From positions 1 through 21,155 of IMG/VR virus record IMGVR_UViG_3300020048_000033: 21,155 nt of DNA; one strand, 5' to 3'. The stretch's first letter is position 1. Every line of letters begins with the position of its first letter. A program made the translations under genes and the position numbers. This DNA is from a virus (Duplodnaviria; Heunggongvirae; Uroviricota; Caudoviricetes). The notes under the pieces are model-generated. The model was not told where the DNA came from, searched no databases, and saw nothing but the letters and a program-made list of their open reading frames with translations. This document shows, piece after piece, positions 4,980 to 21,155 of the stretch.

Positions 4980-5000
4980 AATTATTATTTAAATTTCTTA

Positions 5001-5027: not shown

Positions 5028-5036
5028 GTTAATATA
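5027..5036 (+). promoter_or_regulatory. TGTTAATATA motif
   Basis: Directly after the terminator and before the 5039 ORF; same motif at 137 and 19753. Confidence 0.4.
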
Positions 5037-5038
5037 TA

Positions 5039-5284
5039 ATGGATACTAAATACACTATGACCTTAGGAACTATTTGTAGACTACAGAACTCAAGCACCGA
5101 ATCTTTACTCATATATGAAACTTTGAAAAAGAAGTTACCTTTTCTTGTATGTCCTTGTTCATGGAAGAACAGGATAGTGGTTATCCAAGATTTGCTTTCT
5201 TCTAAACATTGCATAATATCCTTAAAGGGTTTTGAAAAACAAATGTCAGTGTGTGCATTAGCAGACTTAAAACAATTACATTAA
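5039..5284 (+). CDS. Hypothetical protein (81 aa; alternative start 5057)
   Basis: ORF fills the gap in a co-directional operon; no recognisable motif. Confidence 0.6.
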   Translation: MDTKYTMTLGTICRLQNSSTESLLIYETLKKKLPFLVCPCSWKNRIVVIQDLLSSKHCIISLKGFEKQMSVCALADLKQLH

Positions 5285-5294
5285 GGATTAGAAA

Positions 5295-5795: not shown

Positions 5796-5812
5796 AAACT
5801 TTGGAGGTTACA

Positions 5813-6040
5813 ATGTTCACACTATTCATGTGTAAGAAATATGGTATCAATACTAAAATAGATATGGTATTCAAAGGGATATATTCCACTATTGATACGT
5901 TAAGATTAGCAATAAGTTCTGACCCAGAGCTTTGTGCAAATATGAGAGATTTATATTTCAACTTTTCCCAGATAGACTTTGTAGAAACTATTTCTGTAGA
6001 GTCCTTTTCACCAGTTATAATTAAAGATGGAGGTTATTGA
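5813..6040 (+). CDS. Hypothetical protein (75 aa)
   Basis: SD GGAGG before ATG 5813; the stop abuts the next gene. Confidence 0.65.
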   Translation: MFTLFMCKKYGINTKIDMVFKGIYSTIDTLRLAISSDPELCANMRDLYFNFSQIDFVETISVESFSPVIIKDGGY

Positions 6041-6041
6041 T

Positions 6042-8219
6042 ATGATATCAATATTGAAAGCAAAGTTAAAAAACTTTATGTGTATAGATGAGGCTGATTT
6101 AGATTTTCCAGAAAATAAATCTACTATGATTGTAGGTGAAAATGGTTCAGGTAAATCTGCGGTGTTGTGTTCAATTGGTTTAGCTTTTGATTCGTATAAG
6201 AAAGGTGCATCCTTTTCTGATTACATTAAAAAGAATACAAATGAAGCAAAAGTGTTTATTGAAGCTAAGATACATAATGAACCTATCACTTTCGATATTA
6301 CCCTTTCAAGAAAGGGTACTGCATTTGGTCGTATCATCACCTATAAAGAAAAAGAATATATCAATACTGAGTGTGACCAGTTACTTGAAACACTGGAAGT
6401 AACTTATTTTTCTAAAGTAATATTTTCCATGCAGGATGAAGGAGATATTACTTTGATGAAACCGGCGGCACGAGCCGATTTATTATCAAAGCTTCTTGAG
6501 TACGATTTCTCAACTATTGTTTCTAAAGTTTCAGAACTTATAGCTGACTTGAAAAATAAAGTTGTGGATAATAATGCCTCTATTAAACTTAATACGGAAT
6601 TAAGTGCCGAGAAGACAAAAGAAATTGCTATAGTAGAAACTCTTGATTTCACAAATGAAGATATTAAGACATATGAAGAAAAACAAAAGTCTGTTGAATT
6701 AAAGATACAAGCTTATGATAAAATTTCAGAAGACAATTCTTTAATAAATGAAGAGATTGAAACTGTTCGTAAATCTCTTGAACCTTTAACTAAAGAACTT
6801 GAAACTCCTACTTCTATAATCACAAGAGAATCTGAAAAACTTGTAGGTCTTAAAAAAGACTTAGAAAGTTATGAGTCAAGAAAATATTCTATTGAAGAAG
6901 AAATATTAAAAGCAGAAAGCACCATATTAGCTAAAACAATAAAATCAGAAAGTGTACTTGCTTCTCTTGATAATTCAGAGACAGCTATATCTGAGGTTGA
7001 AGCCAAACTTACTGAAAGCAGAAAAATTGGTACAAGTTATACAGTTTCCTACACTCAGATTTGCTCAAGTATCGAAAAAATTAATTCTGATATAAAGTTT
7101 ATGGAGCAGGGTACTTGTCCTACATGTTCATCTACTATTGATCAATCTCAAGTACCTGCATTAAACTCTCAGAAGGAAACACTTAGTAAAGATAAGACTG
7201 AAATTATCAGTAAACAAACTCTTGAAAGGGATAATCAAGTTAAGCTCGATGAAATTCTGAAAGATAAGCAGAAAATTAAAAGTGATATTAAGGGTGAACT
7301 TACTTCACTCACTGATGCAATAAAAACACTTAATGCTTCTATTTCAGAGTCCAAGAAGAAACTCGTAGAGTTAGTAAAACCTCTTGAAGAAACTCTATCC
7401 GCTTGTGAATTATTAATAAAAACAAACAGTGATAAGAAAAATGCAATACAGGAAAAAATTCTTGCTATACAGAAACAGATTTCCTTGCTTGAAACAAGTC
7501 GTGTAACTCAGGAACGAAGTGAGAAGGTAGCTTTTATTGTAGAAAAGAACTCTATCATAGAAAAACTTAAAGATTTTAGTAAAAGAATGGCTTCCATACT
7601 TGAGGTAGAACAATCAAATGCCAGACTTATTAAAGAGATAGCTTCTTGTGAACTTAAAGTAGTAGAACTTAAAGCATTAAATGTTTTAATGAATCAAGAG
7701 ATAGAAGATAATGTAGAAGCAAAGAAAGTTCTTGATAAGGATTTACCTAATTATCTTATAGTTAAGACCTGTGATAAATTAGAGAAAAGAATTAATAGGT
7801 TTGTTCATTCCGTATTTCCTGATATGACTATAAAGATGTATCAGGATAAAAAGGGTGTTGATTTCTTTTATGTCCCTGCTGGAAGCTATGATGCAGATCC
7901 AGAAAATAAAGAATCTTGGATTAATATTGCAATGTCTTCTGGTTGTGAAAAAGCCGCTCTTAGTGTAGGTTGGCGTGTTGCACTTGCAGAAAGTTATGGT
8001 ATTGATATTTTAATGCTCGACGAAGTAGACTCAGCGGCTACAGATAAATCCTCTGAAAAACTTTTAACAACAGTTCTTGATTCCTCAAAGTTCTCACAAG
8101 TATTTATTGTTACTCATAGGAAAGAAACAAGGGACTTTCTGGTAAATAGTAAAGACATAAAAGTTTATTATGCTGATCATGGAGAGTTCTCACTTGATGA
8201 CCCAGAGGATTTTGAATGA
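6042..8219 (+). CDS. Rad50/SbcC/T4 gp46-like SMC-family ATPase (recombination endonuclease subunit)
   Basis: SD GGAGG before ATG 6042. Walker A GENGSGKS, long coiled coil with central CPTC zinc hook, signature SSGCEK, Walker B LMLDEVDS, H-loop IVTH. Confidence 0.92.
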   Translation: MISILKAKLKNFMCIDEADLDFPENKSTMIVGENGSGKSAVLCSIGLAFDSYKKGASFSDYIKKNTNEAKVFIEAKIHNEPITFDITLSRKGTAFGRIITYKEKEYINTECDQLLETLEVTYFSKVIFSMQDEGDITLMKPAARADLLSKLLEYDFSTIVSKVSELIADLKNKVVDNNASIKLNTELSAEKTKEIAIVETLDFTNEDIKTYEEKQKSVELKIQAYDKISEDNSLINEEIETVRKSLEPLTKELETPTSIITRESEKLVGLKKDLESYESRKYSIEEEILKAESTILAKTIKSESVLASLDNSETAISEVEAKLTESRKIGTSYTVSYTQICSSIEKINSDIKFMEQGTCPTCSSTIDQSQVPALNSQKETLSKDKTEIISKQTLERDNQVKLDEILKDKQKIKSDIKGELTSLTDAIKTLNASISESKKKLVELVKPLEETLSACELLIKTNSDKKNAIQEKILAIQKQISLLETSRVTQERSEKVAFIVEKNSIIEKLKDFSKRMASILEVEQSNARLIKEIASCELKVVELKALNVLMNQEIEDNVEAKKVLDKDLPNYLIVKTCDKLEKRINRFVHSVFPDMTIKMYQDKKGVDFFYVPAGSYDADPENKESWINIAMSSGCEKAALSVGWRVALAESYGIDILMLDEVDSAATDKSSEKLLTTVLDSSKFSQVFIVTHRKETRDFLVNSKDIKVYYADHGEFSLDDPEDFE

Positions 8220-8929
8220 TACAAATGATTGGTATTACAGAAAGGGGCGACCCTAGATTTGATGATTCTTGGGTTAAATGGGTTAAGGATGGAAAACCTG
8301 CAATTCTCGTTACGAAGGATTTCCCTTTCGTAATCAATAAAATTGGCCCAAGAAAAAATATACTATTCCATGCTACTTGTACTGGTTTGGGTGGAACAAT
8401 TTATGAACCAAATGTTCCACTATCAGGACAAGTATTTGATATCTTAAAAGGTATTCCTGAATCCTATAAAAGCCATGTTGTTGTTAGAATTGATCCAATT
8501 ATTCCAGATATAATTTTTATTAGAAAAGCAAAAGCAGTATATGACCAAGCAATTTCACTTGGCTTTAAAACAAGAATCTCTTACATGGATTATTATCCTC
8601 ATGTGAAGGCTAGAATTTCACAAATAGATGAGGGACTCTCAATAAGTCTTAATGGAATTTATTCAGAGGGTATTCATGCACCTTTATCTATTAGAAAATA
8701 TATAACTGATTCATTTTTTCCTGAGGCAGTTATTTGTGGAGAACCGGGTTTTATTAGTGATGGTTGTGTAAATCAATCTGTTTGCGACATATTAGGTGTA
8801 GAGTTCTTGGGTGGAAACTCAGAACAAAGGATTGGATGTTCCTGTGGAAAACAAAAGTTTGAATTACTTAAAAGTAATAAACGCTGTCCCCACAATTGTT
8901 TTTACTGTTACTGGCGTGATTCTATTTAA
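8216..8929 (+). CDS. DUF1848-like radical SAM protein (spore photoproduct lyase-related fold)
   Basis: VVRIDPII, EPNVP, QRIGCSC and C-terminal CPHNCFYCYW (CxxxCxxC at the C-terminus), typical of DUF1848. ATGA overlap with the upstream stop. Confidence 0.7.
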   Translation: MIQMIGITERGDPRFDDSWVKWVKDGKPAILVTKDFPFVINKIGPRKNILFHATCTGLGGTIYEPNVPLSGQVFDILKGIPESYKSHVVVRIDPIIPDIIFIRKAKAVYDQAISLGFKTRISYMDYYPHVKARISQIDEGLSISLNGIYSEGIHAPLSIRKYITDSFFPEAVICGEPGFISDGCVNQSVCDILGVEFLGGNSEQRIGCSCGKQKFELLKSNKRCPHNCFYCYWRDSI

Positions 8930-8930
8930 T

Positions 8931-8941
8931 CACTACTAATT
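8931..8941 (+). promoter_or_regulatory. CACTACTAATT motif
   Basis: Identical to 1472-1482; 4 nt before ATG 8946, which has no SD. Confidence 0.4.
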
Positions 8942-8945
8942 CTTT

Positions 8946-9338
8946 ATGAGTGGAAGACGAACATCCTCGGATGTAGAATGGAAAGAATTAAAAGATAGAG
9001 TCAGATCACGAGATAAAAATGTTTGCAGATTGGTAAGAGTTATATCAATAAAAGATATGTTGATTTTGAAAAAAAACGCCCCATCTTATATGTTGAGTAA
9101 CTTAGACCCTGCACACATTTTACCCGTAGGGGCACACCCTGCTTACTGTTATTTAGATGATAATGTAGTAATGCTAAATCATTATTCTCATTCCAACTTA
9201 GATGATATGAAAAGCCCTATTGATGGACATTCAATATCTAGAGAGGAGAGAGATAACTGGTGGAAATTAATTGTCGGAGAAAAACAGCTACAAAACTTAA
9301 AAGTAGCTATAGCAAACTTGAGCAACAAAGAGGAATAA
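8946..9338 (+). CDS. HNH endonuclease-like protein
   Basis: WKELKDRVRSRDKNVC...LDPAHILP...DNVVMLNHYSH follows the W...RD..C / H / N...H pattern; most Zn-binding Cys are absent. Confidence 0.6.
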   Translation: MSGRRTSSDVEWKELKDRVRSRDKNVCRLVRVISIKDMLILKKNAPSYMLSNLDPAHILPVGAHPAYCYLDDNVVMLNHYSHSNLDDMKSPIDGHSISREERDNWWKLIVGEKQLQNLKVAIANLSNKEE

Positions 9339-9342
9339 CAGT

Positions 9343-9747
9343 ATGGAAGAAGTAACTCGGGAAAAAATAAAACTAAAGCCTATCGAAAAATCATTTATTG
9401 TTTTGGGTGTAGCCGTATTTGTAACTATTTTAGCTATGATTACAGGAATACTTGTTATTGAAGTAACACCTTATTCACTTATTGCTATGGGACTATTAAT
9501 GATATTTATTCTTATCTCATATTTTATCTTTGGACGATACATCATAGATGTACAGAGTAATTCTAATTTAGCAGATTTACAAGCTAATGTAGCTATTACT
9601 CAAGCAACTATAATGACTTCGGATGAAAAGGGTGGAACATCAAACATTGGTTTTAGAATGACCGATGAAGATTCTACTGATGACGATACAGAAGAAAAAC
9701 TAAGAAAGAAAGTAAGAGGTAAGAATCTTTTTACCAAACGCTACTAA
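9343..9747 (+). CDS. Hypothetical membrane protein (2 TM helices, charged C-terminus)
   Basis: SD GAGGA; two hydrophobic segments at about aa 18-63. Confidence 0.75.
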   Translation: MEEVTREKIKLKPIEKSFIVLGVAVFVTILAMITGILVIEVTPYSLIAMGLLMIFILISYFIFGRYIIDVQSNSNLADLQANVAITQATIMTSDEKGGTSNIGFRMTDEDSTDDDTEEKLRKKVRGKNLFTKRY

Positions 9748-9798
9748 TTAAAAGCTAAGTATATTAAGTGTAGGCATCGACCACACGAAAGGAAATGT

Positions 9799-12700
9799 AT
9801 GTACATAATTAAAAAGAACTCTGATGTAGTTCCGTTTGAATCGGATCACATTAAGAAGTCTATCGTTCGGGCGGCAAAAGCTGTTCTTGGTTCTGATTTA
9901 GAGAAAAAGATTGACATTGAATCAATCACTCAGTCAGTTGTTGAAAAGATTGAAGCACTAAATATCGAGAAAATCGGTATTGAAAAGATTCAAGATATTG
10001 TAGAGATTGCTTTGATGGAACATCATCAATATGACGTAGCAAAATCTTTTATCCTATATCGAAAAGCCCGTACAGATGAAAGAGAATCTAAAAATGATCT
10101 TATTTCTTATACAGAAGTAATGAATGGATATCTCGACCAGACTGATTGGCGCACAAAAGAAAACTCCAATGTAAACTATTCTCTCGGAGGTTCTATCCTT
10201 CATAACAATAGTGCTATTACTGCAAACTATTGGCTAAAGAAAGTTTATTCACCACAGATTGCCGATGCTCATAAAAATGCAGATTTTCATTTACATGATT
10301 TAGGTATCTTCGCTTCATATTGTGCAGGATGGTCATTACGAGAACTTCTTACTCAAGGTATCACTGGTGTATCAGATAAAGTAAGTTCCGCTCCCTCAAA
10401 ACATTTGAATACCTTGTGTCAACAAATTGTAAACTTTTTAGGTATCATGCAAAATGAATGGGCAGGTGCTCAGGCATTTAGCTCCGTAGATACTTACCTT
10501 GCACCTTTTATTAAAATTGATAGCCTTTCATATGAGCAGGTTTATCAGTGTGTTCAAACTCTTATCTATGGAATTAATACTCCTTCACGTTGGGGGTGTC
10601 AGTCCCCTTTCAGTAATTTTACATTAGACTGGACTGTTCCTTCCGATATGAAAGATAAGAAAGCAATTGTTGGTGGTAAAGAACAAGACTTCACTTATGG
10701 TGATTGTCAAGTAGAAATGGATATGTTCAATAAAGCATTTTTTGAGATGTTCTCCAACGGAGATAATCAAGGAAGAAGTTTTCAATACCCCATTCCTACA
10801 GTAAATATTACCCCAGAGTTTTGGAATCATAATCCAGAGAATCAGGAAATACTTTTTAAGCTTACCTCCAAGTTTGGAACACCTTATTTCCAAAACTTTA
10901 TTAATTCTGACATCGATCCATCGGATGTAAGATCGATGGCTTTGATGCCATCTCAAAGGGTTATCTATAAGAACAGAGATGGTAGAGTTTCTGTAAATGA
11001 AATTAGACATCTTGTAAACGAATGGTTTTTACAAGAAGATAAGAGTAAACCCTTATATGAAATGCTTATTGATGGAAGGTTTGTTCCTGTAACAGAAATG
11101 TTTAAAATCCCTTATAAAAAATATGGTAAATCAGTTAGTATTATGTTGTCAAATGGGTATGTACAGCCTTTTTCTATGGATCATAAATGTCAAGTATTAA
11201 GAGCGGGTGTTATTCAAACCATTCTAAGTCAAGAAGTTTTAGAATCTGATAGCTTTATTCTTTCTAAAAAACCTTTTGGAATTAATAATGGGGTAGGTAC
11301 ATATGATACAGGAAAAATTGTAGGATATTTTCTTGCGGAGGGTTGGTATAGTTCTCATTCAGCGAATGAGATTGTGTTTGCTATAAATATAAATCAAGAA
11401 CCTATTGTTTCAGAAATTAAAAACTTTTTCATGTCAATAGGGTGTAATGTCATAATTAAAAAACAGGAAGAAGTTAATATTTTTAGAGTCCAAGTTTATG
11501 GGAAACAAGCTGTAGGATTGGTTTCCAATTATATTCATGGAAATACGGCACTAACGAAGAGGCTTTCTTCTAATATGTGGAATAGTGATGATAGTTTTAG
11601 AGAGGGTGTCTATTCAGGATATTATGATACTGATGGTTGTAGGAAAGAAAAAAACTTTGCACATACCCCTAATAAGGATTTAATTCAGGATTTTATAATC
11701 CTTTCTTCCTCTTTAGGAAAAATATTAAAATATAGTGTAAACAAAAATAACACAAGATACTTTAAGGAAGATAAATCCGATCTCGAAGTATTTACAAGTT
11801 ACAAATTAGATGAATATTCATCTGATGAAACCTCTGAATATTTTATTGTTCCTGTCAAAGAGGTGAAGGTTGTTTCTTCTCGGGCAGAGTTTGTATACAA
11901 TTTTACGGTTGATACTCCTGAGCATCTTTTCGAGTTACCTAACGGTATTATTACCCACCAATGTTGTCGCCTTCGTTTGGACAAGAGGGAACTTCGTAAA
12001 AGGGGTGGTGGACTTTTCGGTTCAGCAGAACTTACAGGCTCAGTTGGTGTTGTAACATTGAACCTACCCAGAATTGGATATCTTGCAAATGATGAAGAAG
12101 ACTTCTATCAGAGACTTAATAGCCTTATGGATATCGCAAAGGATTCTTTAGAGATTAAACGAAAAGTTTTAATCAAAAACCTACAAGAGGGTTTGTACCC
12201 ATATACAAGAGCTTATATTTCTTCCTTCGACAATTTCTTTAGTACAATTGGTATTGTAGGTCTTAATGAAGCAATACAAAACTTGTTCGGTAAAGAAATA
12301 AATATCGGAACAGAAAAAGGTAAGGGTTTTGCTATTGAAGTTCTTAATCATATGAGAACCCATATATCAAACTATCAAGTTGAAACTGGAAACCTTTATA
12401 ACCTTGAAAGTACCCCTGCTGAAAGTACTTGCTATAGACTGGCACTCCATGATCAGAAAAAATATCCTGACATTATTACCGCAGGTAGCAATGGAGACCC
12501 CTACTATACAAATAGTTCAAACCTTCCAGTAGGTTTTACAGATGACCCTTGGGTAGCTATTGAACATCAAGAACCTCTGCAACTCAAGTACACTGGCGGG
12601 ACTGTATTTCATGCTTTCTTAGGTCAGCAAGTAGATAATGGTGAAGCAACCAGAAACTTTATTAAAAAAGTTTTTGAAAATAGTAAAATACCGTATCTTA

Positions 12701-12852
12701 CTATCTCACCTGTATATTCTATCTGTTCTGTACATGGATACCTTGCAGGTAGCCAAGAACGTTGCCCGAAGTGCAGGGATGAACAGGTAAAGGCTTACAA
12801 GAAGAAACTTAATGATCTTAAAAAACAAAAATCCGAATTAGAACTAATCTAA
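9799..12852 (+). CDS. nrdD: Anaerobic (class III) ribonucleoside-triphosphate reductase with ATP-cone, intein-containing, lacking the C-terminal glycyl-radical loop
   Basis: ATP-cone MYIIKKNSDVVPFESDHIKKSI; YCAGWSL, QNEWAGAQAFS, QSPFSN, RSM|CCRLRLD (split by the intein), YNLESTPAES, YTGGTVFH, CSVHG...CPKC. Confidence 0.95.
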   Translation: MYIIKKNSDVVPFESDHIKKSIVRAAKAVLGSDLEKKIDIESITQSVVEKIEALNIEKIGIEKIQDIVEIALMEHHQYDVAKSFILYRKARTDERESKNDLISYTEVMNGYLDQTDWRTKENSNVNYSLGGSILHNNSAITANYWLKKVYSPQIADAHKNADFHLHDLGIFASYCAGWSLRELLTQGITGVSDKVSSAPSKHLNTLCQQIVNFLGIMQNEWAGAQAFSSVDTYLAPFIKIDSLSYEQVYQCVQTLIYGINTPSRWGCQSPFSNFTLDWTVPSDMKDKKAIVGGKEQDFTYGDCQVEMDMFNKAFFEMFSNGDNQGRSFQYPIPTVNITPEFWNHNPENQEILFKLTSKFGTPYFQNFINSDIDPSDVRSMALMPSQRVIYKNRDGRVSVNEIRHLVNEWFLQEDKSKPLYEMLIDGRFVPVTEMFKIPYKKYGKSVSIMLSNGYVQPFSMDHKCQVLRAGVIQTILSQEVLESDSFILSKKPFGINNGVGTYDTGKIVGYFLAEGWYSSHSANEIVFAININQEPIVSEIKNFFMSIGCNVIIKKQEEVNIFRVQVYGKQAVGLVSNYIHGNTALTKRLSSNMWNSDDSFREGVYSGYYDTDGCRKEKNFAHTPNKDLIQDFIILSSSLGKILKYSVNKNNTRYFKEDKSDLEVFTSYKLDEYSSDETSEYFIVPVKEVKVVSSRAEFVYNFTVDTPEHLFELPNGIITHQCCRLRLDKRELRKRGGGLFGSAELTGSVGVVTLNLPRIGYLANDEEDFYQRLNSLMDIAKDSLEIKRKVLIKNLQEGLYPYTRAYISSFDNFFSTIGIVGLNEAIQNLFGKEINIGTEKGKGFAIEVLNHMRTHISNYQVETGNLYNLESTPAESTCYRLALHDQKKYPDIITAGSNGDPYYTNSSNLPVGFTDDPWVAIEHQEPLQLKYTGGTVFHAFLGQQVDNGEATRNFIKKVFENSKIPYLTISPVYSICSVHGYLAGSQERCPKCRDEQVKAYKKKLNDLKKQKSELELI
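10939..11961 (+). mobile_element. Intein (341 aa) with LAGLIDADG homing endonuclease; Ala1 and C-terminal His-Gln
   Basis: Removing it restores DVRSM-CCRLRLD. Block A ALMPSQRV, block B SMDH, block C IVGYFLAEG, block E GVYSGYYDTDG, block F VYNFTV, block G NGIITHQ/C. Confidence 0.92.
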
Positions 12853-12855
12853 TGG

Positions 12856-12882
12856 AAAAGACTGCTGAAAAGCAGTCTTTTT
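12856..12882 (+). terminator. Rho-independent terminator after nrdD
   Basis: AAAAGACTGCT-GAAA-AGCAGTCTTTT(T). Confidence 0.88.
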
Positions 12883-12898
12883 ACTTTTAAACTTAAAG

Positions 12899-12906
12899 AA
12901 CTAATT
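12899..12906 (+). promoter_or_regulatory. AACTAATT motif
   Basis: Between the terminator and the SD (AAGGA) of the 12925 gene. Confidence 0.4.
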
Positions 12907-12924
12907 AAATAAGGAAAATCAATA

Positions 12925-14028
12925 ATGTATAATTTTAAGAAAATATATGAAGCGACCCATTTGCTTGAGAAGAAAGACCATCTCATAAAAAAGATTCCAG
13001 AGTTATCTGAGGATGAAAAGTCTGAAGTAATTGACTGGTTTTCAGAGCATCCTAACAGGGAAACTGAAATTGATTGGAACAATATAAATTCTCTCAAGTT
13101 CTCAGATTTTGAAGTTTTAATGAAAACCGAATCAAAGACAGGAAGAAAAAATAAAGTTAAGGTAAATGGACTTCAAGGTTTACTCGAAGGTACGGATTTT
13201 GGTTTGGCTTATGAGGATGAGAATATTATTGGTCTTGTTCCATTTCATTATGAAGCCAGTAAATTACTTGCTTCCAAGTATGTTGGAAAAGTTGAAGCAA
13301 AGTGGTGTACAGCCTTTCAGAAAACTGACAAGCACTGGAAAGAATATATCCAACATGGTATAACCTTTGTTTATTTTATAAATAAAAAGGGTTCTGTTGG
13401 AGAGGAAGTAAATACTTTTTCTTGGAATAAAATTGCAGTAACTATATATCCTAAAAATATATTTGATGGTAAACTTGAAACTTATGATGAGACAGACAAC
13501 AAAGCTATTAAAATGAAGCCAAGACCAACTTCATGGTTATATAAGAGAATTGAAAAGTCAATTATTGATATCGCTGTTGAAGAAGCCAAACTTTTGGGAC
13601 AAAAGATAAACAGAGTATTTTTCAATGAGTTAAGTTTAGAGTCTTTAAAGGATTGGAAGATTAATTTTCAACTTGATTCTGAGGGTAAAGTTAATGTTGA
13701 AGGCGATTGTGATATATCTGGTAAATTCTTAAACACCTTTGGTACTGTAGTCTTTGGAAATATTAGTGGAGACTTTGATTGTTCCTTTAATAAACTAACA
13801 GACTTAACAGGTGGACCACAAACTACTGACGGTCATTATAAGTGTAACAATAATAAATTGACAAGCTTAGAAGGAATCCCCGATAAAGTTGGTGGAGATT
13901 TTGATTGCTCTGGTAATGAATTAAATGAAATTTGGTCTCCTGATTGGGTTGGTGGAGATATTATTGATTATGATAATAATATAGACTATGGATTTGAGGA
14001 AGAAGAACCAGAAGAAGATGACGAATAA
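12925..14028 (+). CDS. Hypothetical protein with N-terminal IYE/LLE propeptide-like motif, KWCT motif and C-terminal LRR-like repeats
   Basis: FKKIYEATHLLEK; AKWCTAF; repeats GDFDCSFNKLTDLTGGP / GHYKCNNNKLTSLEGIP / GDFDCSGNEL; acidic tail. Confidence 0.75.
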   Translation: MYNFKKIYEATHLLEKKDHLIKKIPELSEDEKSEVIDWFSEHPNRETEIDWNNINSLKFSDFEVLMKTESKTGRKNKVKVNGLQGLLEGTDFGLAYEDENIIGLVPFHYEASKLLASKYVGKVEAKWCTAFQKTDKHWKEYIQHGITFVYFINKKGSVGEEVNTFSWNKIAVTIYPKNIFDGKLETYDETDNKAIKMKPRPTSWLYKRIEKSIIDIAVEEAKLLGQKINRVFFNELSLESLKDWKINFQLDSEGKVNVEGDCDISGKFLNTFGTVVFGNISGDFDCSFNKLTDLTGGPQTTDGHYKCNNNKLTSLEGIPDKVGGDFDCSGNELNEIWSPDWVGGDIIDYDNNIDYGFEEEEPEEDDE

Positions 14029-14070
14029 TATTTATAAGGGAAAAACTCAGTTTTAAGAAGGGATAAAGAA

Positions 14071-14820
14071 ATGAAATACACAACGGATAAAGAAGGAAAT
14101 TTAATATTTGATGTCTCAGCAGGATTTTCAAATTCATCACAAAGAAACAATATATACGTAGATAAGGTTTTAAAAAAGTCTACAGCTTTGGTTGCCTGTA
14201 ATGCCACGTCAATGGGTATGGGGTTGGAATATACCGGGTGGTCTATTCCACAAAAGTATCTTGAATTAAAACAACAAGAGGATAACCTTATCAAGTTTTG
14301 TCAGGAAGACTCTATTGTATTAGATTACTATAAAAAAACTCTTCCTGCAATGTATGCTGCATGGTTGGTAAGAGCAAAAGACTGCTATGCACCAAATGAA
14401 GTACACGATGTTTTAAGCTATGCAATAAATATGTATATGGGTTCAAAAGTAACCTATTTTAAGGTTAATACCCTTGTAAGTGAAATTGTTTCCGATATCT
14501 CAATTAGAAATCTCCCAATCGTAATGAGCGGAAAGTTTGCAGGTTTTGGTCATGTTGTATGTTTAGTAGGTTTCAAGGCAAAGAAAGAATTCCTTGAGGG
14601 CTATAATAAAACAAAAACTATTACAGAGGATTTACTTAAGTTTATTTATGAGTGGACTATTGATGACCCTTATGGGGATTTTAGAAATGATTATAAGATT
14701 GTATTATCGGGAAATAATATTCCTATGACCTCACTACAATTTAATACAATGTTCAATCCCAGAGAAAGCACAACCGTTAAGTTTGCACATCGGTTTAATA
14801 AACCTCCAGTGAAATCCTAA
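14071..14820 (+). CDS. Papain-like cysteine peptidase, C39-like
   Basis: SQRNN (oxyanion Gln), ACNATS (Cys), GHVVCLVG (His), IDDPYG (Asp) in the order expected for C39-like peptidases. Confidence 0.75.
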   Translation: MKYTTDKEGNLIFDVSAGFSNSSQRNNIYVDKVLKKSTALVACNATSMGMGLEYTGWSIPQKYLELKQQEDNLIKFCQEDSIVLDYYKKTLPAMYAAWLVRAKDCYAPNEVHDVLSYAINMYMGSKVTYFKVNTLVSEIVSDISIRNLPIVMSGKFAGFGHVVCLVGFKAKKEFLEGYNKTKTITEDLLKFIYEWTIDDPYGDFRNDYKIVLSGNNIPMTSLQFNTMFNPRESTTVKFAHRFNKPPVKS

Positions 14821-14824
14821 TTAA

Positions 14825-14857
14825 AAAGACTACCTTATTGGTAGTCTTTATTTTTTT
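14825..14857 (+). terminator. Rho-independent terminator
   Basis: AAAGACTACC-ttatt-GGTAGTCTTT then A and T7. Confidence 0.85.
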
Positions 14858-14920
14858 AATCCAACTAACTAAGGATAACTTCATATAGGGTGAGTTCTAT
14901 AAAGTTTTTAGGGGGGTTTT

Positions 14921-16009
14921 ATGAAAAGCTTTTTGGGGTTGAAGGGTAGTGAAAGGGATAAGTTTTATCAGTCAAAATACGAGTATTTTTTAAAGTTAAA
15001 TTTAGGGGCAATATTTTCTTCTTATATTAGCTTAGTATTACTGTGGGTAACGGATTGTCAACTTTTTGGTAGATTAGCTTTTGAAACTCTTTTTCCCCGG
15101 GTAATAATGGTACTTCCGATAAGTCTATTTTATATTCTTGTTAAGAGGGGTGTAACTAATTACAGGATAATGATACCCTTTACTTATTTTATATTACATG
15201 GAATAATGTGGTGTACAATATGGGCATGTTACTATCTACCTACTAACAAGTTTTCAAGTCAAGGTTTTATGATGATGCAGTTTATGTTTCTTATAGTAGG
15301 TTTCAGTGCCCCCTACTTTAGAAATATATTTTTCCATTTAGGTATATTTTTAAATATGTATGTATCTCACTTCTTTATTAACTATGAAGATTTCCTTATG
15401 TTGATGCTCTTTGGTATTCCCTTATATATAGGGATTGCTATCATTCAGTATGTTTTAACTAACTCTTATAAAGAACAATACGATCTTAAACAGAAACTTT
15501 CGGAGTTAGCCACAGTTGATTTTCTCACAAAAGCTTATAATAGGAATATTCTTACTACCATTACTGAACCAGAAACTAAAAAGTTTATTAAAAAATTGGG
15601 TGTATCGATTAAAATCCTTCTTTTGGACATTGATTTTTTCAAGAAAATAAACGATGATTTTGGTCATGATGCAGGAGATACCGTTCTTACTACTGTCTCT
15701 GAAACAATAAAGTCCTGTATTAGGGATACCGATATTTTCCTTAGATGGGGTGGAGAGGAGTTTGTTGTAATTATGCCAAATATTACCCTTGAATCCGCAA
15801 AAATGATTGCAGAAAGAATTCGTTCATCCGTGGAAAAAGTAGAAACCGGTCTTCGAGGGGTAACAGTATCAATCGGTATTTCTGACTATGATAATGACAA
15901 TTATCAGGAATCAATAGATAACTCCGATAAGGCTTTGTATAAAGCAAAAGAATCGGGAAGAAACCAAGTACAGTATTTTAAGGAATTAAGAAGTGTTACA
16001 AATAACTAA
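14921..16009 (+). CDS. Membrane-anchored diguanylate cyclase (GGDEF domain)
   Basis: About 5-6 N-terminal TM segments; DFLTKAYNR, LLDIDFFKKINDDFGHDAGD, I-site RDTD, RWGGEEF, VTVSIG, DKALYKAKESGRN. Confidence 0.95.
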   Translation: MKSFLGLKGSERDKFYQSKYEYFLKLNLGAIFSSYISLVLLWVTDCQLFGRLAFETLFPRVIMVLPISLFYILVKRGVTNYRIMIPFTYFILHGIMWCTIWACYYLPTNKFSSQGFMMMQFMFLIVGFSAPYFRNIFFHLGIFLNMYVSHFFINYEDFLMLMLFGIPLYIGIAIIQYVLTNSYKEQYDLKQKLSELATVDFLTKAYNRNILTTITEPETKKFIKKLGVSIKILLLDIDFFKKINDDFGHDAGDTVLTTVSETIKSCIRDTDIFLRWGGEEFVVIMPNITLESAKMIAERIRSSVEKVETGLRGVTVSIGISDYDNDNYQESIDNSDKALYKAKESGRNQVQYFKELRSVTNN

Positions 16010-16661
16010 AAGTTTTAAGAGAATATATGAGGCATCCAATAAATATCAATCTTCCTCCGAGTTTTTGAAATGGTTTGGAAATTCTGTGGTGGTGAATGAG
16101 GAAGGTAAACCCCTAGTAGTTTATCATGGAACTCGATTTAAGTCTAAAAATGATAAGCTTCGGTCAGGTTCTTGGTTCACAGATAACTCAGATTTTGCAG
16201 GGGGTTTTATTAATGGAAGAAAGTCTAATGGTACCCCGAGTGAAAGAGAGGTAAAGGATAGAAGTAGAATATATCCTGCATTTTTATCAATAAAGAATCC
16301 TATAATATATAAAGCCGCATGGCATCACATTTCACCTGAAAGGTTTGCAAATATTGTAGGTATCCCCTATGAGGACTTAAATGCAAAGGCTCTTGAGTTT
16401 GCTCGACAAGGCAATAAAAAAGAGGAAGCAGAGCATGAGAATGACTGGGTAAGAAATCCTTACGCCTCAGGTTGGAGACAAAAGGACTTTCCAATCTCTG
16501 AAATGCCAGAGAATATGTTTGCCATATATTTTGATAATAAAAATCTTATAAAGGCTCTTCAATTTTATGGTTTTGATGGGGTTCAGTCTATGGAAGGTGG
16601 ATCGAACACTTGGCAGGTTTGGGACGAATCTCAGGTAAGGTCTATATATGGAAAAGGATGA
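15993..16661 (+). CDS. ART-PolyVal-like ADP-ribosyltransferase-fold protein with N-terminal FKRIYEA motif
   Basis: FLKWFGNSVVVNEEGKPLVVYHGT, WFT, IYPAFLSIKNP, GFDGV..MEGG...WQVWDESQVRS. GTG start with SD AAGGA; overlaps the DGC stop. Confidence 0.65.
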   Translation: MLQITKSFKRIYEASNKYQSSSEFLKWFGNSVVVNEEGKPLVVYHGTRFKSKNDKLRSGSWFTDNSDFAGGFINGRKSNGTPSEREVKDRSRIYPAFLSIKNPIIYKAAWHHISPERFANIVGIPYEDLNAKALEFARQGNKKEEAEHENDWVRNPYASGWRQKDFPISEMPENMFAIYFDNKNLIKALQFYGFDGVQSMEGGSNTWQVWDESQVRSIYGKG

Positions 16662-16689
16662 CCCAGAAAAAAGTTCCGAGTCATCCTTT
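16653..16689. terminator. Hairpin between convergent genes, probable bidirectional terminator
   Basis: AAAGGATGAC (16653-16662) / GTCATCCTTT (16680-16689), 17-nt loop. Confidence 0.6.
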
Positions 16690-16694
16690 AAGTC

Positions 16695-17081
16695 TTACAG
16701 GATGGGGATAACGGTGGGATTCAGGCTGTCAAAAAAATCGTTGATGGATTTGATTGGCGTAGAATTGTTACAGGAAAAAAGGTCATTTCCCCGATTTGTC
16801 CCTTCTCTGATGACAATCTCCTGAGGACTGTGAGTGTACCCAAAATAGTACCGTTTTCCTCCGATAATGCACCATACTGAGTTTCCCGTCTTATCCATCG
16901 GGTCTGAGGTGGAAATTACGGTAATTTCTTCATTACCTTGGGCATCTTTGTCGCTGTAGATGAAGATATTCCCTATGAGAAGTGGTACAATATCCCTGAC
17001 CTCAAGGGCATGATGGTTGCTTCGTGCGATAGCTTCCACGAAATGAAGCCGAAGGTCTGCGGGGGAAAGTTTCTGAGGCAT
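16695..17081 (-). CDS. Protein resembling the integron cassette protein Cass14 (VCH_CASS14) family
   Basis: SD AGGAG. ARSNHHA..V, NSVWCIIGGKRYYFGYTH...IVIREG..RG...NSTP match the recalled Cass14 pattern RADHHA / NVLW..I.G.RY.F.YNH / NSTP. GC about 45% by hand count. Confidence 0.65.
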   Translation of the reverse strand: MPQKLSPADLRLHFVEAIARSNHHALEVRDIVPLLIGNIFIYSDKDAQGNEEITVISTSDPMDKTGNSVWCIIGGKRYYFGYTHSPQEIVIREGTNRGNDLFSCNNSTPIKSINDFFDSLNPTVIPIL

Positions 17082-17109
17082 AGGTACTCCTTAATTGTGC
17101 AATAGAATA

Positions 17110-17138
17110 AATATAACCCCTTTATATATGGAAGTCAA
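17110..17138 (-). promoter_or_regulatory. Sigma70-like promoter for the minus-strand gene
   Basis: On the - strand, TTGACT (17138-17133)-17 nt-TATATT (17115-17110). Confidence 0.6.
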
Positions 17139-17139
17139 G

Positions 17140-17158
17140 AAAACTTCTAAGAAGTTTT
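17140..17158. repeat. Perfect 9-bp palindrome between divergent promoters
   Basis: AAAACTTCT-A-AGAAGTTTT. Confidence 0.6.
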
Positions 17159-17169
17159 AAAAAGTCTCT

Positions 17170-17206
17170 AAGTTTTGAACTTTTATTAAAATTCCTGTAT
17201 ATTATA
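17170..17206 (+). promoter_or_regulatory. Conserved sigma70-like (early-type) promoter
   Basis: TTGAAC (17175-17180)-17 nt-TATATT (17198-17203); near-copy at 20502-20538. Confidence 0.7.
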
Positions 17207-17242
17207 GGTAGATAATTTGTTTTTTAATCCTACTTGGAAAGA

Positions 17243-17252
17243 CTAACTAATT
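17243..17252 (+). promoter_or_regulatory. CTAACTAATT motif
   Basis: Intergenic, upstream of the SD (AGAGGA) of 17305. Confidence 0.4.
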
Positions 17253-17304
17253 CTCTATGAGCATTTAGAGATGCTTCAATATTAAGACGTAACAAGAGGA
17301 AACT

Positions 17305-17808
17305 ATGAAAATTATACTTAAAGAGGGTCAGGAATTGTTGGATATTCAGGGAAATACCCTACTTAGCGAAAGTGGAGACTTTATCAGCTCAGGCGAAAAA
17401 TTGCAGGAAACGATTTTTGATAATGAAAAAGCCGAGATTATAATGGGATTTTTAAGGGGTGCTTTGTTTACAGGAACCGATACTAATAACCCTGAATCCG
17501 GTGGAGAACCCCTAGAGGATAACTTCACACTTGAAGATTTCTGTGTAGAAAGTAAAGAAAAAGCCAAAAACATTGTAGAATGTTTCTTGAAAAAAATTGG
17601 TGATATTGATGTAGAAGTTGAAGGTAAAGATTTCGATGACCTTGGTATTGATCTTTGGATGACTATGACCCATCAGGGTGTAGGTTTCTGGGATGGAAGT
17701 TGGGGAGATATTGGCGATACCCTTGATGCCTACGCAAAAGAAGTAACTAAGGAATTTTATATAGAAGGTGCTTGGGATACTGATGAGGGTGAAGTAGAAA
17801 TTTATTAA
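17305..17808 (+). CDS. Acidic hypothetical phage protein with N-terminal LKE/LSE/LQE motifs
   Basis: 167 aa, SD AGAGGA. LGIDLWMTMTHQGVGFWD resembles a recurrent phage motif G.D.WLTRN.HG.GFWD of unknown function. Confidence 0.75.
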   Translation: MKIILKEGQELLDIQGNTLLSESGDFISSGEKLQETIFDNEKAEIIMGFLRGALFTGTDTNNPESGGEPLEDNFTLEDFCVESKEKAKNIVECFLKKIGDIDVEVEGKDFDDLGIDLWMTMTHQGVGFWDGSWGDIGDTLDAYAKEVTKEFYIEGAWDTDEGEVEIY

Positions 17809-17816
17809 ATAAAAGG

Positions 17817-17839
17817 AGGGTCAGAAGTCTGACCCTTTT
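17817..17839 (+). terminator. Rho-independent terminator
   Basis: AGGGTCAG-aagt-CTGACCCT-TTT. Confidence 0.75.
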
Positions 17840-17858
17840 AATTTTAAAGGACATTGAT

Positions 17859-19706
17859 GTGAAGTTACAAGAAAATATTACGGATTATGGAACAGATAAA
17901 CATGGAGTAGAATGGGTAAGATTCTTTTTACGAGGAACAGCTACTTGGATTACCCAACGAGATGAAAACTCTGTTTGGTGGTTTAGTGATAATACAGGTC
18001 TTGACCTAATTAGAGCTATAGAAGAAGCATCCGTTTTTTCTAAGAGTGTATATTCAATTAAAGAAATTGATACTGAGTTATATAATGACCTATCTGCATG
18101 GATGGATGGTAGTACAGATAAAACACTTATTGGTAAAGAATACCTAAAGGTAGAAAATAAAATGAGAAAAAACTTAAATGAAACCGAGAAGCGTGAATAC
18201 CGCTTATATGATAAATATCAAGGTGGAGAGGATGTAATTGCTACTTTCAAAACTTTGGAAAATGCTATTTCAAGACTAGTAGACTATGTTAAAGGAACAG
18301 AAGCTTCCGATTATGATAAGTACCAGTCTGTATTTGTTGAAGGTCCCGATCCGTGGAACCATAAGTATTTAATTGGATATGTAATATGTGACAAAGGGTT
18401 ATTTAATGATGATCTTTTTAAGCACATTGAAGATTCTGGAAATATGTATATAACTGTTTATACCGATGGAACTTGGAAAGCAAATGAACTTGCATTAAAA
18501 ACTTTAAAAGATCCATCTGAAAATACTTTAGAAGAAAAAAAGGAAGAAAATATGATTAATAGAATTAAAGAATCTACAAGTTGGTTCGTTACTTATGTAG
18601 GCGAATCTACTAACTGGGATAATAAAGGTGTTAAATATATACCTATGGTAGGTTCTGATAGTATTAGAGAATTTGATGGAAGATTGAGTTTAAACTCTGC
18701 CTTAGTAAAAGCCTGTGAGTATGGAAAAGTGTTGAACAGTAGAACTAAGGGTGGGTATGTCAAGGGCTTGGTAATAGGTCGTAGCGGGTCTCAAAGAAGT
18801 TTTGATGAAACCAATTTGGTTATTTATACCCTTTCGGGATCTAAGACAGGTAAGCATATTGACGACTATGTAGAATCAGGAGAATTTAATATGGATAAAA
18901 AGCCAATGAGAGAAGCAGGACAATATACCTTTGATGGGAGAGTGGAAGATGAGTTTTATGAAGGTAATTCAAGATTCAAAACCATTTACAATTATATCTC
19001 AAAAAGATTTGGACCTGAGTTTGGCAAAAGTCAATCACAGGTAAATGTAAAAGCTTTCTCAGAAGGTATTTATGATTTTATCATAGAAACAAAGGGTGAA
19101 AATCGTTCTGGCGACCAAGAAGAATTGATTGAGTATATTGACAACCTTTTTGAAGACTTTGATGATTTCTTAGACAGTGATATCATGGATGCTGTTAAGG
19201 ATTATATTTGTTCAGAAGTAGAGAATGTAGGAATCAGAGTTGACGATGATGAGTACCTTGAAAATATGTATGCTGATAGCGGTCTTGACTTGGAATATAA
19301 TGAGAATGAATCTGGTTTCGTTGATAGTGAAGATGAAGACACCTACCTATTAGAAAAAGGTCTTACAAAAAAAGACCTTGAGGATTGGTTATCACATCAG
19401 GAAAATCTTAACATTGAAACAATTATTGAAGATCGTTATCAGGATGCGTCTGGTCGTGGTGTAATTTTACTTGGATGCTACCCTATAGGTGAAATGGAAG
19501 AACAACTTCCTGATGAATTACTTCGATTCTTTAGAAATCCTGAGAATACAGATTTACTAATTGATTTAGATCGTAGATTTAAGTATCGGGTCGATAATGG
19601 TATGGTCTATATTGACCTTAGCCAAAAAACTATAAACTATGTAGTGTATTGGAGACAAATTGCTAAGAAGTTCTATGAAGATATGGGAATAGATTCCACA
19701 AAATAA
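17859..19706 (+). CDS. Composite acidic protein (615 aa), apparent fusion of 4-5 modules
   Basis: GTG start with SD AAAGGA. In-frame internal ATGs at 18162, 18552 and 18891, each with an SD-like sequence and followed by an (I/L/M)xE motif. Confidence 0.75.
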   Translation: MKLQENITDYGTDKHGVEWVRFFLRGTATWITQRDENSVWWFSDNTGLDLIRAIEEASVFSKSVYSIKEIDTELYNDLSAWMDGSTDKTLIGKEYLKVENKMRKNLNETEKREYRLYDKYQGGEDVIATFKTLENAISRLVDYVKGTEASDYDKYQSVFVEGPDPWNHKYLIGYVICDKGLFNDDLFKHIEDSGNMYITVYTDGTWKANELALKTLKDPSENTLEEKKEENMINRIKESTSWFVTYVGESTNWDNKGVKYIPMVGSDSIREFDGRLSLNSALVKACEYGKVLNSRTKGGYVKGLVIGRSGSQRSFDETNLVIYTLSGSKTGKHIDDYVESGEFNMDKKPMREAGQYTFDGRVEDEFYEGNSRFKTIYNYISKRFGPEFGKSQSQVNVKAFSEGIYDFIIETKGENRSGDQEELIEYIDNLFEDFDDFLDSDIMDAVKDYICSEVENVGIRVDDDEYLENMYADSGLDLEYNENESGFVDSEDEDTYLLEKGLTKKDLEDWLSHQENLNIETIIEDRYQDASGRGVILLGCYPIGEMEEQLPDELLRFFRNPENTDLLIDLDRRFKYRVDNGMVYIDLSQKTINYVVYWRQIAKKFYEDMGIDSTK

Positions 19707-19718
19707 TTTAACTTAAAG

Positions 19719-19745
19719 AAAGGACTGCTTACTTGCAGTCCTTTT
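19719..19745 (+). terminator. Rho-independent terminator
   Basis: AAAGGACTGC-ttactt-GCAGTCCTTT(T). Confidence 0.85.
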
Positions 19746-19752
19746 AATTTTA

Positions 19753-19763
19753 TGTTAATATAC
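19753..19763 (+). promoter_or_regulatory. TGTTAATATAC motif
   Basis: Identical to 137-147; lies between the terminator and the RNA ligase SD (GAGG). Confidence 0.45.
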
Positions 19764-19777
19764 ATTTGAGGATTATC

Positions 19778-20434
19778 ATGGAAAAGTACAAATACCCAAG
19801 AACATATCATCTTCCCTTCTCAAATACTTCTAATGATGATAAGAAACATCCTTCGGTGGATTTCTTATTGGGAAAGGAAGTTATAGTAACTGAGAAAATG
19901 GACGGAGAAAACTCTTCTTTTTCTCAAGAGTATTATCATGCAAGATCACTCGACTCAAACAATCATCCCAGTAGAGATTATGTTAAACACTTTTGGAGTT
20001 CTATTCAATACTTTATCCCTGAAGGTATCCGTATCTGTGGGGAAAATCTGTATGCTCAACATTCAATTCGATATGAAAATCTTCCTGATTTCTTTCTTGC
20101 TTTTTCTGCTTGGAAAGATGACACCTGTTTAAGTTGGGATGAAACACTTAGATTATTTAAAACTTTAAGTATTTTTCCTGTAAGAACCTTGTATGAAGGG
20201 GTTTATGATATTGAAAAGATTCATGCAAAATGGAAAACACTATCCGAGGGAAAAGAAGGATATGTTATTCGATTGAGGAACAGCTTTACCTATGACAATT
20301 TCTCTGAAAGTGTCGTCAAATTTGTTCGACCAAACCATGTACAAACAGGAGATCATTGGATGAACTCCACCATTATTAAGAATAAAATGAATCCAGACTA
20401 TACCAAATGGTATCGAGACCTTAGAATCAACTAA
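19778..20434 (+). CDS. RNA ligase family nucleotidyltransferase (Rnl2-like adenylation domain)
   Basis: KYPRTYHLP, motif I TEKMDGEN, motif III ICGENLY, IIIa FLAFSAW, IV EGYVIR, V VVKFVR. ATG 19778 after SD GAGG. Confidence 0.88.
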   Translation: MEKYKYPRTYHLPFSNTSNDDKKHPSVDFLLGKEVIVTEKMDGENSSFSQEYYHARSLDSNNHPSRDYVKHFWSSIQYFIPEGIRICGENLYAQHSIRYENLPDFFLAFSAWKDDTCLSWDETLRLFKTLSIFPVRTLYEGVYDIEKIHAKWKTLSEGKEGYVIRLRNSFTYDNFSESVVKFVRPNHVQTGDHWMNSTIIKNKMNPDYTKWYRDLRIN

Positions 20435-20483
20435 TTTTGTACTAAAACAGTACATTTAGTCTATTTTGCACTAAAACAGTACA
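20434..20483. repeat. Tandem 21-bp direct repeat, each copy palindromic
   Basis: ATTTTGTACTAAAACAGTACA (20434-20454) and ATTTTGCACTAAAACAGTACA (20463-20483), 20/21 identical; core TGTACT-N5-AGTACA. Confidence 0.8.
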
Positions 20484-20501
20484 CACTTAAAAATCGTAAG
20501 A

Positions 20502-20538
20502 AAGTTTTGAACTTTTTCTGAACTTCCTATATATTATA
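20502..20538 (+). promoter_or_regulatory. Conserved sigma70-like (early-type) promoter
   Basis: TTGAAC (20507-20512)-17 nt-TATATT (20530-20535); AAGTTTTGAACTTTT is identical to 17170-17184. Confidence 0.72.
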
Positions 20539-20562
20539 TATGTAAGGAAAAAGGGGTTTAAA

Positions 20563-21155
20563 ATGGACAAAGTAGTGCGATTGATGCTGGTTTCCGAAAA
20601 TAATAACAACAAATTTTACGATATGATAGCTCATGGGGATACGTTTACTGCCAATTGGGGTCGAGTCGGTGCAAAATGCCAGACAAAAGACTATCCAATA
20701 TCCTCATGGGATAAAGTGTACCGTGAGAAAACGAATCCAAACAAGTCAGGTGGCCCGTACACAGATGTTACCGCTCATGCTTCTATCAATAAGACTGAAA
20801 AGAATCTCAACATCAAGGACAAGGACGTAAAAGCCCTTATCAACTTCCTTATGTCATCGGCAAAACAATCAATAACTGAATCTTATACGGTCGCTGTAAA
20901 CGAAGTAACCAAAAAACAGCTTGAATCTGCACAGGAACTTCTGGAGAAACTTTCGATTATGTCCGGTAAGAAAACCATTTCTACCGAAGAGGTCAATGAA
21001 GTCCTCCTGCTCCTGTATCGAACCATTCCCCGAAAAATGAAGGACACCAGAAAGTATCTGCTTCAAGAAGCAAGCCATACATTCTTGGATGAACTCCTTG
21101 CCAATGAACAAAATCTTCTCAATACCCTTTCAACTCAGGTTGTAGTATCTACTTC
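20563..21155 (+). CDS. WGR-domain, PARP-like protein (5' part; runs off the window end)
   Basis: Not in the ORF track. Hand translation: MDKVVRLMLVSENNNNKFYDMIAHGDTFTANWGRVGAK...WDKVYREK...LLYRTIPRKMKD...EQNLLNTL, i.e. a WGR domain followed by a PARP regulatory-like helical domain. SD AAGGGG. Confidence 0.8.
   Translation, partial: MDKVVRLMLVSENNNNKFYDMIAHGDTFTANWGRVGAKCQTKDYPISSWDKVYREKTNPNKSGGPYTDVTAHASINKTEKNLNIKDKDVKALINFLMSSAKQSITESYTVAVNEVTKKQLESAQELLEKLSIMSGKKTISTEEVNEVLLLLYRTIPRKMKDTRKYLLQEASHTFLDELLANEQNLLNTLSTQVVVST

Follow-up and report, generated by a model that had tools for sequence, protein, structure and literature searches.

Why would a large bacteriophage carry the gene for a complete, membrane-embedded enzyme of bacterial second-messenger signalling, and is that gene the phage's own? 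The question is raised by an open reading frame (ORF) at 14921..16009 (+) of the 21,155-nucleotide stretch analysed here (hereafter, the window), which is the first 21 kb of a 143,203-bp virus record in IMG/VR (IMGVR_UViG_3300020048_000033; CheckV completeness ~47%). An initial annotation, made from the letters of the window, had described the product as a phage-encoded, apparently intact, membrane-anchored diguanylate cyclase (DGC), i.e., an enzyme that converts guanosine triphosphate (GTP) to cyclic diguanosine monophosphate (c-di-GMP). This description is borne out by a frame that is open over 362 codons from an ATG start to a TAA stop, by a Pfam GGDEF domain, by six predicted transmembrane (TM) helices and by phage-type neighbours, and the 362-residue protein has full-length homologues at 40–50% identity. 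The best overall reading, to which we give a probability of about 0.6, is that this is a genuine huge-phage gene whose product is a membrane-embedded cyclase that raises c-di-GMP in the host and alters its behaviour. That the protein is an active phage-borne cyclase is highly probable; what it does to the behaviour of the host we propose tentatively, at somewhat under even odds.

The argument for activity starts from the GGDEF catalytic domain (residues 197–349, 15509..15967 (+)), which matches Pfam GGDEF (PF00990) with 148.3 bits against a cut-off of 23.8 (E 2.1e-43) and covers the whole 161-position model. The protein also matches TIGR00254 with 154.6 bits against a cut-off of 37.4 (E 1.8e-45), and the best solved relatives of the domain, namely 5llw (2.8e-35), PleD (3e-27), WspR and DosC, are proven cyclases. 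The three motifs named in the initial annotation are all found. The metal-binding aspartates of the DID motif (residues 236–238, 15626..15634 (+)) stand at the start of the first GGDEF strand, with D236 and D238 invariant, and the active-site motif GGEEF (residues 277–281, 15749..15763 (+)) is invariant in the family alignment. The sequence RDTD (residues 268–271, 15722..15733 (+)) is the RxxD allosteric inhibition site (I-site); it ends exactly 5 residues upstream of GGEEF, its R268 is at least 90% conserved and its D271 invariant, and it is also kept in the phage orthologues described below. In addition, N244 and D253 form the guanine-binding pair (equivalent to N335 and D344 of PleD), and K343 and R347 are the Lys/Arg of the transition state. 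Across the 40-sequence family alignment, every one of these residues and motifs is invariant or at least 90% conserved. Hypr-type GGDEF enzymes, which make cyclic GMP–AMP (cGAMP), carry a serine at the guanine-specificity position; the aspartate at this position in the phage protein (D253) suggests that GTP is favoured over Hypr-type substrate use. Judged by its sequence, the DGC lacks none of the residues that an active, product-inhibited diguanylate cyclase should have.

The other half of the protein is an N-terminal cytoplasmic helix followed by a six-helix transmembrane module (residues ~1–180, 14921..15460 (+)), a remote MASE8-like sensor delimited by AlphaFold helices and hydropathy. The AlphaFold model, built on the 40-sequence alignment, has a mean pLDDT of 89.9 and places the membrane helices at residues 24–49, 54–75, 81–103, 111–127, 132–153 and 158–198, with loops of only 4–7 residues between them. 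The sixth helix (TM6) runs on into a long stalk (residues 158–198, 15392..15514 (+)), which is the predicted dimer interface in the AlphaFold and homodimer models. Because the N-terminus is rich in Lys and Arg, and hydropathy agrees, the topology is probably N-in/C-in with the GGDEF domain in the cytoplasm. Eight polar residues within the membrane (D45, C46, T56, R60, H93, W97, C98 and T99) are highly conserved in the family, and the seven other than C98 are family-invariant and kept in the DGC; together with the absence of loops, the eight suggest that sensing takes place within the membrane, as has been argued for other MASE domains (bioRxiv 10.1101/2021.11.05.467447).

The homodimer model of the DGC reached an ipSAE of 0.75 against 0.00 for the best control, with a partner pLDDT of at least 83 and a contact agreement of at least 82%, a result that may partly reflect likeness to solved GGDEF dimers and is a prediction, not proof of binding. 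In calibration, the same mark was reached by 20 of the 30 proteins solved as one-chain pairs and by 1 of the 23 solved as single chains. The modelled contacts lie at residues 110–128 and 157–199, i.e., in TM4, TM6 and the stalk, and the DGC is thus predicted to form a parallel homodimer whose geometry would pair two GTP-loaded GGDEF domains. Of the family's 77 positions with a conservation of at least 90%, the phage protein (P0001) departs at only 6, each time conservatively (A>S, I>M, M>L); five of the six departures fall in the sensor part, and bacterial family members show 0–9 such departures. So few and such conservative changes suggest that the sensor and catalytic halves are both under purifying selection.

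That the gene belongs to a phage lineage is seen first from its orthologues. In a tree of 122 sequences with SH-aLRT support values, P0001 forms a clade with P0002, P0003, P0030 and P0031 at 99% support, on a branch of 1.13 substitutions per site against a median of 0.16. The contigs that carry P0002 (L183, L187 and L269; GC content ~31%) have their genes in the order of the window, with identities to it of 81% for NrdD, 61% for the C39-like protein, 50% for the DGC and 44% for the WGR/PARP protein. Those that carry P0030 and P0031 (L179, L184, L185, L199 and L200; GC ~35%) have a DGC of 44–45% identity and share four other genes with the phage, which are an SbcC-like gene, ORF 94439, a giant ORF of 3767 aa and a clamp-loader-like gene. 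P0003 comes from a contig of 47% GC with a hydrolase neighbour. The phage orthologues keep all of the motifs listed above. It is well supported that one phage group has retained the DGC in no fewer than three diverged low-GC lineages, where its composition has become that of the phage. Prevalence in related phages and phylogeny had both been proposed as checks in the initial annotation, and the orthologues in two other lineages and the well-supported clade strengthen the case for a function that serves the phage.

The same contigs also show where the gene sits. The left border is a Peptidase_C39_2-like gene (14071..14820 (+), Pfam 3e-05), whose protein has no more than 4 homologues in a set of 5.8 billion proteins, each of them on a contig of a related phage; the right border is a WGR/PARP gene (20563..21155 (+)), which runs off the window and whose homologues follow the C39-like gene in L186, L187 and L188. 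Between these conserved borders, the window (14821–20562) holds the DGC, an ART-PolyVal gene, a reverse-strand Cass14-like gene, a 167-aa ORF, a 615-aa ORF and an RNA ligase gene. L187 holds only the DGC there. L186 (51% GC), in which 17 genes are syntenic with the window, has a GIY-YIG endonuclease gene in the DGC position, and L188 (53% GC) has ~620 nt without a called gene. Since L186 and L188 have no DGC at this position, the site is best described as a variable accessory slot in which the DGC is kept in low-GC lineages only.

Two side observations concern the relatives themselves. L186, a 40-kb Logan contig (SRR24540810), is syntenic with window positions 4173–21155 but has 51% GC against 34%, so that a single phage group seems to extend over hosts that differ widely in base composition. 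The NrdD gene (window 9799–12852) encodes 1017 aa and carries an insertion; in L186 (5293–8938), the NrdD call is broken up around a DUF7487 ORF, with a weak match to intein splicing, and the insertion differs between relatives.

The second line of evidence is the contig. The DGC has phage genes around it, over 15 kb on one side and 127 kb on the other, and the record carries 28 tRNA genes together with PHROG families for a baseplate wedge, tail fibre, UvsX-like recombinase, DNA polymerase and helicase. A 163,769-bp ENA contig is 99.957% identical over 16.2 kb, has the same neighbours of the DGC and extends ~21 kb further upstream; a Logan contig with, again, the same neighbours shows 100% identity over 7.3 kb. 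Three samples of one aquatic-metagenome study gave contigs that were compared with the 12–19 kb region of the window. One of these contigs spans both junctions of the DGC, and a second-sample contig bridges the upstream junction without a difference; those of runs X2 and X3 cover the region in pieces only, so that their gaps carry no meaning. Contig continuity, a further check that had been proposed, is therefore supported by the ENA, Logan and second-sample contigs alike. The composition of the gene is also typical of the phage, as had been claimed: GC is 32.0% and GC at third codon positions (GC3) 28.9%, against 34.0 ± 2.8% and 25.8 ± 4.9% for 59 phage genes, the synonymous-codon fit to the phage ranks 19 of 59, and bacterial homologues have a GC3 of 37–65%. 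Because the assemblies agree and codon usage is phage-like, chimerism at this locus is very unlikely. No match was obtained when the whole window was compared by megablast with 50,697 phage records, and exact-pattern scans of IMG/VR with the DGC protein and with its 615-aa neighbour found nothing.

A strong Shine–Dalgarno sequence, AGGGGGG (14910..14916 (+)), ends 4 nt before the ATG of the DGC, and a terminator-like hairpin with a T run (14825..14859 (+); hairpin itself 14825–14849) closes the upstream C39-like gene, suggesting that the DGC opens a new transcription unit. A promoter scan directly upstream of the DGC found no convincing sigma-70 site. Downstream, an ART-PolyVal ADP-ribosyltransferase gene (15993..16661 (+), Pfam 1.6e-14), for which independent annotations give the same gene call, begins with a GTG that overlaps the stop of the DGC by 17 nt, and the two genes are probably co-transcribed.

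Two further neighbours deserve a remark of their own. The sole minus-strand gene of the window (16695–17081 (−)) matches the integron cassette protein VCH_CASS14 (4.5e-13); its GC of 45% and GC3 of 50%, against 34% and 26% for the phage, suggest a recent foreign insertion. On the other side of the C39-like gene, a 367-aa ORF (12925–14028) has internal repeats and two paralogues in an otherwise unrelated 109-kb viral contig (L013 6137–7399 and 11396–12910). Public assemblies break or vary within this ORF (13100–13330), which may encode a mobile or hypervariable repeat protein. L013, reached via this ORF, was considered as a relative of the phage and rejected, as it is not syntenic, has only the repeat-rich gene in common and is without a GGDEF domain.

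Beyond the phage group, the closest proteins to the DGC among 5.8 billion cover 95–100% of its length at only 40–50% identity. The few named sources are metagenome-assembled genomes of Lachnospiraceae, Oscillospiraceae, Butyrivibrio, Eubacteriales and Treponemataceae, and one homologue (P0006) lies in clearly bacterial surroundings, close to SASP and MBOAT genes and to a second, paralogous cyclase. The membrane module led to 80 metagenome loci, and in 76 of these nothing else is shared with the phage, suggesting that the family is mainly bacterial. A donor from Treponemataceae was considered and not retained; the nearest such protein (P0026, 48%) falls outside the phage clade, so that no name can be put to the donor. 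Members of the family also occur in two other IMG/VR records, one being a 268-kb phage (L016) and the other a record classed as provirus, in which the gene lies near the contig end. Neither groups with the P0001 clade, which suggests that these copies were acquired separately, and queries with DNA polymerase and baseplate proteins showed no kinship of the phage with either record. In L016 (IMGVR_UViG_3300045988_167287, 2652–17037), the MASE8-like GGDEF gene stands among RlaP (RNA repair), PARG, YgjV-like, PMT_2 and Ro60-like (DUF2828) genes, an accessory set reminiscent of the ADP-ribose and Ro60-like genes in the present phage.

How, then, might the phage use the enzyme? We propose that the DGC would be made de novo after infection and then inserted into the host membrane, since injection along with the DNA is unlikely for a membrane protein of six helices. 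There it would dimerise and convert GTP to c-di-GMP, gated by an intramembrane signal and by product inhibition. The raised c-di-GMP would act on the host's own receptors, such as the PilZ proteins of candidate Treponematales hosts, and shift the cell to a high-c-di-GMP state in which motility is braked and the cell surface or matrix altered. Such a state may favour phage production, hinder superinfection, or both. The specific outputs suggested in the initial annotation, namely a stop of motility, a change of receptors and exclusion of superinfection, we likewise infer rather than observe.

Several points weigh against this reading. First, the membrane module of P0001 scores under the Pfam cut-off for MASE8 (PF20968; 13.1 bits, E 0.11, cut-off 26.2, model positions 12–153 of 154), for which reason it is labelled as remotely MASE8-like; among full-length homologues, P0087 scores above the cut-off (31.8 bits) and the L016 protein, P0028 and P0002 score 23.6, 20.8 and 18.7 bits, respectively. 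Second, the two high-GC relatives that have no DGC between the C39-like and PARP genes, L186 and L188, suggest that the gene is dispensable for the phage group. Third, the phage side gives no pointer to the output, as there is no PilZ and no EAL domain on the 143 kb in hand, and an Rfam scan, which covered 139 kb of the contig, detected nothing but tRNAs, without any c-di-GMP riboswitch. Fourth, the I-site would cap the output of c-di-GMP, which fits modulation rather than a flood of the messenger. Finally, the assignment of the host to the Treponematales spirochaetes is circumstantial.

The host assignment starts from a type I-C CRISPR array of the phage (G000 70542–72513; L008 9542–11513). 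Its repeat, with two compensatory stem changes, occurs as arrays in 2 of 301 sampled Treponematales genomes (G456:C18:39608–40042 and G412:C190:43–343) and in 0 of 401 sampled Clostridia; the stem is CTCCCC/GGGGGT versus CACCCC/GGGTGT, with the pairing kept. Full-length matches to the DGC reach 48–49% in the Treponematales sample and 39% or less in the Clostridia sample. The two repeat-bearing genomes encode 3–4 PilZ-domain proteins each, and a search with the GGDEF domain of the phage protein gave one match and none in them at E <= 1e-20. In such hosts, the phage cyclase could weigh heavily in the c-di-GMP pool. A search with RF01051 found nothing in four candidate host genomes, nor in any control genome, so that this negative carries no weight.

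A bolder form of the proposal, which we regard as unlikely, is that the loop-less sensor reads the state of the infected cell's membrane (its energisation, a lipid or redox change, or the attack of a second phage) and translates it into c-di-GMP, so that the virus would own both the input and the output. In cyclase-poor hosts, such an enzyme would take over the c-di-GMP pool, stop the periplasmic flagella and block superinfection.

The alternatives to a cyclase that serves the infecting phage can be weighed against the same evidence. The DGC might instead be a 'moron' that benefits the host, changing the biofilm or motility of a lysogen to the cell's advantage while the phage persists as a prophage, a pseudolysogen or in a carrier state. 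For this there is a precedent in Bordetella phage LK3, which carries a GGDEF gene, whose lysogens over-produce biofilm and for which a lysogen-benefit role has been suggested (PMC8471281); the terminator-bounded unit of the DGC would fit it as well, and the retained sensor and I-site would suit long-term, regulated use. However, no tyrosine integrase was found on the contig, and the 28 tRNAs, the replication genes of its own and the CRISPR-Cas system are marks of a large virulent phage; both points are weak, with ~47% of the genome in hand. We consider such a role improbable.

A part in conflict or counter-defence, in which the cyclic dinucleotide would disturb immune nucleotide signalling of the host or act on rival mobile elements, is slightly harder to sustain. 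Polyvalent proteins of phages are described in which GGDEF is joined to ART, SNF2 and methylase domains, and interference with host nucleotide responses has been suggested for them (Iyer et al. 2017, PMC5512222). Here the DGC stop overlaps the ART-PolyVal start, in a block rich in NAD/ADP-ribose functions that also has NUDIX, SNF2, PARP/WGR, RNA ligase and NadD-type genes. The unrelated 268-kb phage, too, has its own family copy beside PARG, RlaP and Ro60-like genes. However, the pairing of the DGC with the ART gene is not conserved, as PARP comes immediately after the DGC in L187, and the neighbours of the DGC in L184 are replication genes. Moreover, the retention of a bacterial-type sensor, the feedback site and the specificity aspartate points to ordinary c-di-GMP signalling and away from a decoy or an unusual nucleotide, and no defence system that uses c-di-GMP was identified in the host.

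It is very improbable that the GGDEF domain is a receptor, a scaffold or the maker of another nucleotide. Some GGDEF proteins are indeed degenerate receptors, the cGAMP-making Hypr enzymes exist, and there is a weak Pfam GGDEF_GdpP match (22.8 bits against a cut-off of 30), whereas the catalytic residues of the phage protein are all intact, its specificity position is Asp rather than Ser/Thr, and its nearest relatives by structure and by sequence are proven cyclases. An artefact, i.e., bacterial DNA mis-joined to the phage contig or the host flank of a provirus, is hardly credible: the DGC lies 15 kb from a contig end, its family is mainly bacterial and one other viral member sits near the contig end of a provirus-classed record, but phage genes stand on both sides, three assemblies agree, one of them extending well beyond the upstream end, related phages have the same gene order and the codon usage is that of the phage.

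If the preferred reading is right, and the DGC is active and changes the motility or surface of the host during infection, large phages would steer a central bacterial lifestyle switch by a regulated rather than a blunt enzyme. The gene is also a cleaner test object than most, being a stand-alone gene for 362 aa in which the sensor, the stalk and the catalytic and feedback sites are intact, and nature provides the comparison, with orthologues in related huge phages and relatives in which this site is without a DGC. Motility and c-di-GMP receptors are features of the likely host group, and the two candidate genomes gave few GGDEF matches to the phage protein.

Among known systems, the DGC most resembles the bacterial MASE-type multi-TM cyclases (MASE8 PF20968 with GGDEF PF00990) of Lachnospiraceae, Oscillospiraceae, Butyrivibrio and Treponemataceae, which have the same size, align over the full length at 40–50% identity and have in common with it the intramembrane polar residues, the stalk, GGEEF and RxxD. 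Unlike them, it is phage-borne, lies on a long branch and has a MASE8 score under the cut-off. By fold, it matches over its whole length YhcK (DgcK) of B. subtilis, staphylococcal GdpS-type proteins and DgcF, DgcT and DgcC (AdrA) of E. coli (Foldseek E ~1e-16, probability 1.00), whereas identities to these are 20–26%, TM-scores are ~0.4–0.48 and their membrane families are 5TMR-LYT, MASE2 and MASE4; to our knowledge, staphylococcal GdpS is not an active cyclase. PleD (1w25), WspR (3bre) and the bacteriophytochrome cyclase 5llw align with its GGDEF domain end to end and have the same catalytic, guanine-binding and RxxD residues, although their input domains are soluble (REC or phytochrome), whereas the phage protein has a membrane module.

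Virus-borne GGDEF genes as such are already known, having been annotated in several phages and viromes (PMC8471281, PMC7785012, PMC12484599, PMC5512222), including Bordetella LK3 and Yuavirus phages (PMC8471281) and a Mu-like virus of the Cariaco Basin (PMC7785012). Bacillus phage SP-15 and phage G (gp350) are further carriers. The expectation that DGCs are uncommon in lytic phages stands as far as rarity goes, as 65 of 50,697 INPHARED records match and several of these are plainly bacterial contigs; a lytic lifestyle of the present phage is conjectural. In a comparative review of 224 jumbo phages, phosphodiesterases against cyclic nucleotides are the only enzymes of this field discussed, and the text names no cyclase (PMC7824862); a survey of huge phages makes no mention of cyclases (PMC7162821). 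In the literature searched, none of the virus-borne GGDEF genes has a demonstrated role for the phage.

The known phage GGDEF genes are like the DGC in being virus-borne, in having an apparently active GGDEF domain and in that their function is inferred. We note three respects in which the present gene stands apart from them. First, only the GGDEF domain is common to both (28–43% identity), with no match to the membrane module, whereas the DGC has a complete, bacterial-type, MASE8-like sensor and an I-site. Second, its orthologues can be traced across a phage lineage, with vertical retention at a variable slot of huge phages. Third, its probable host is a spirochaete.

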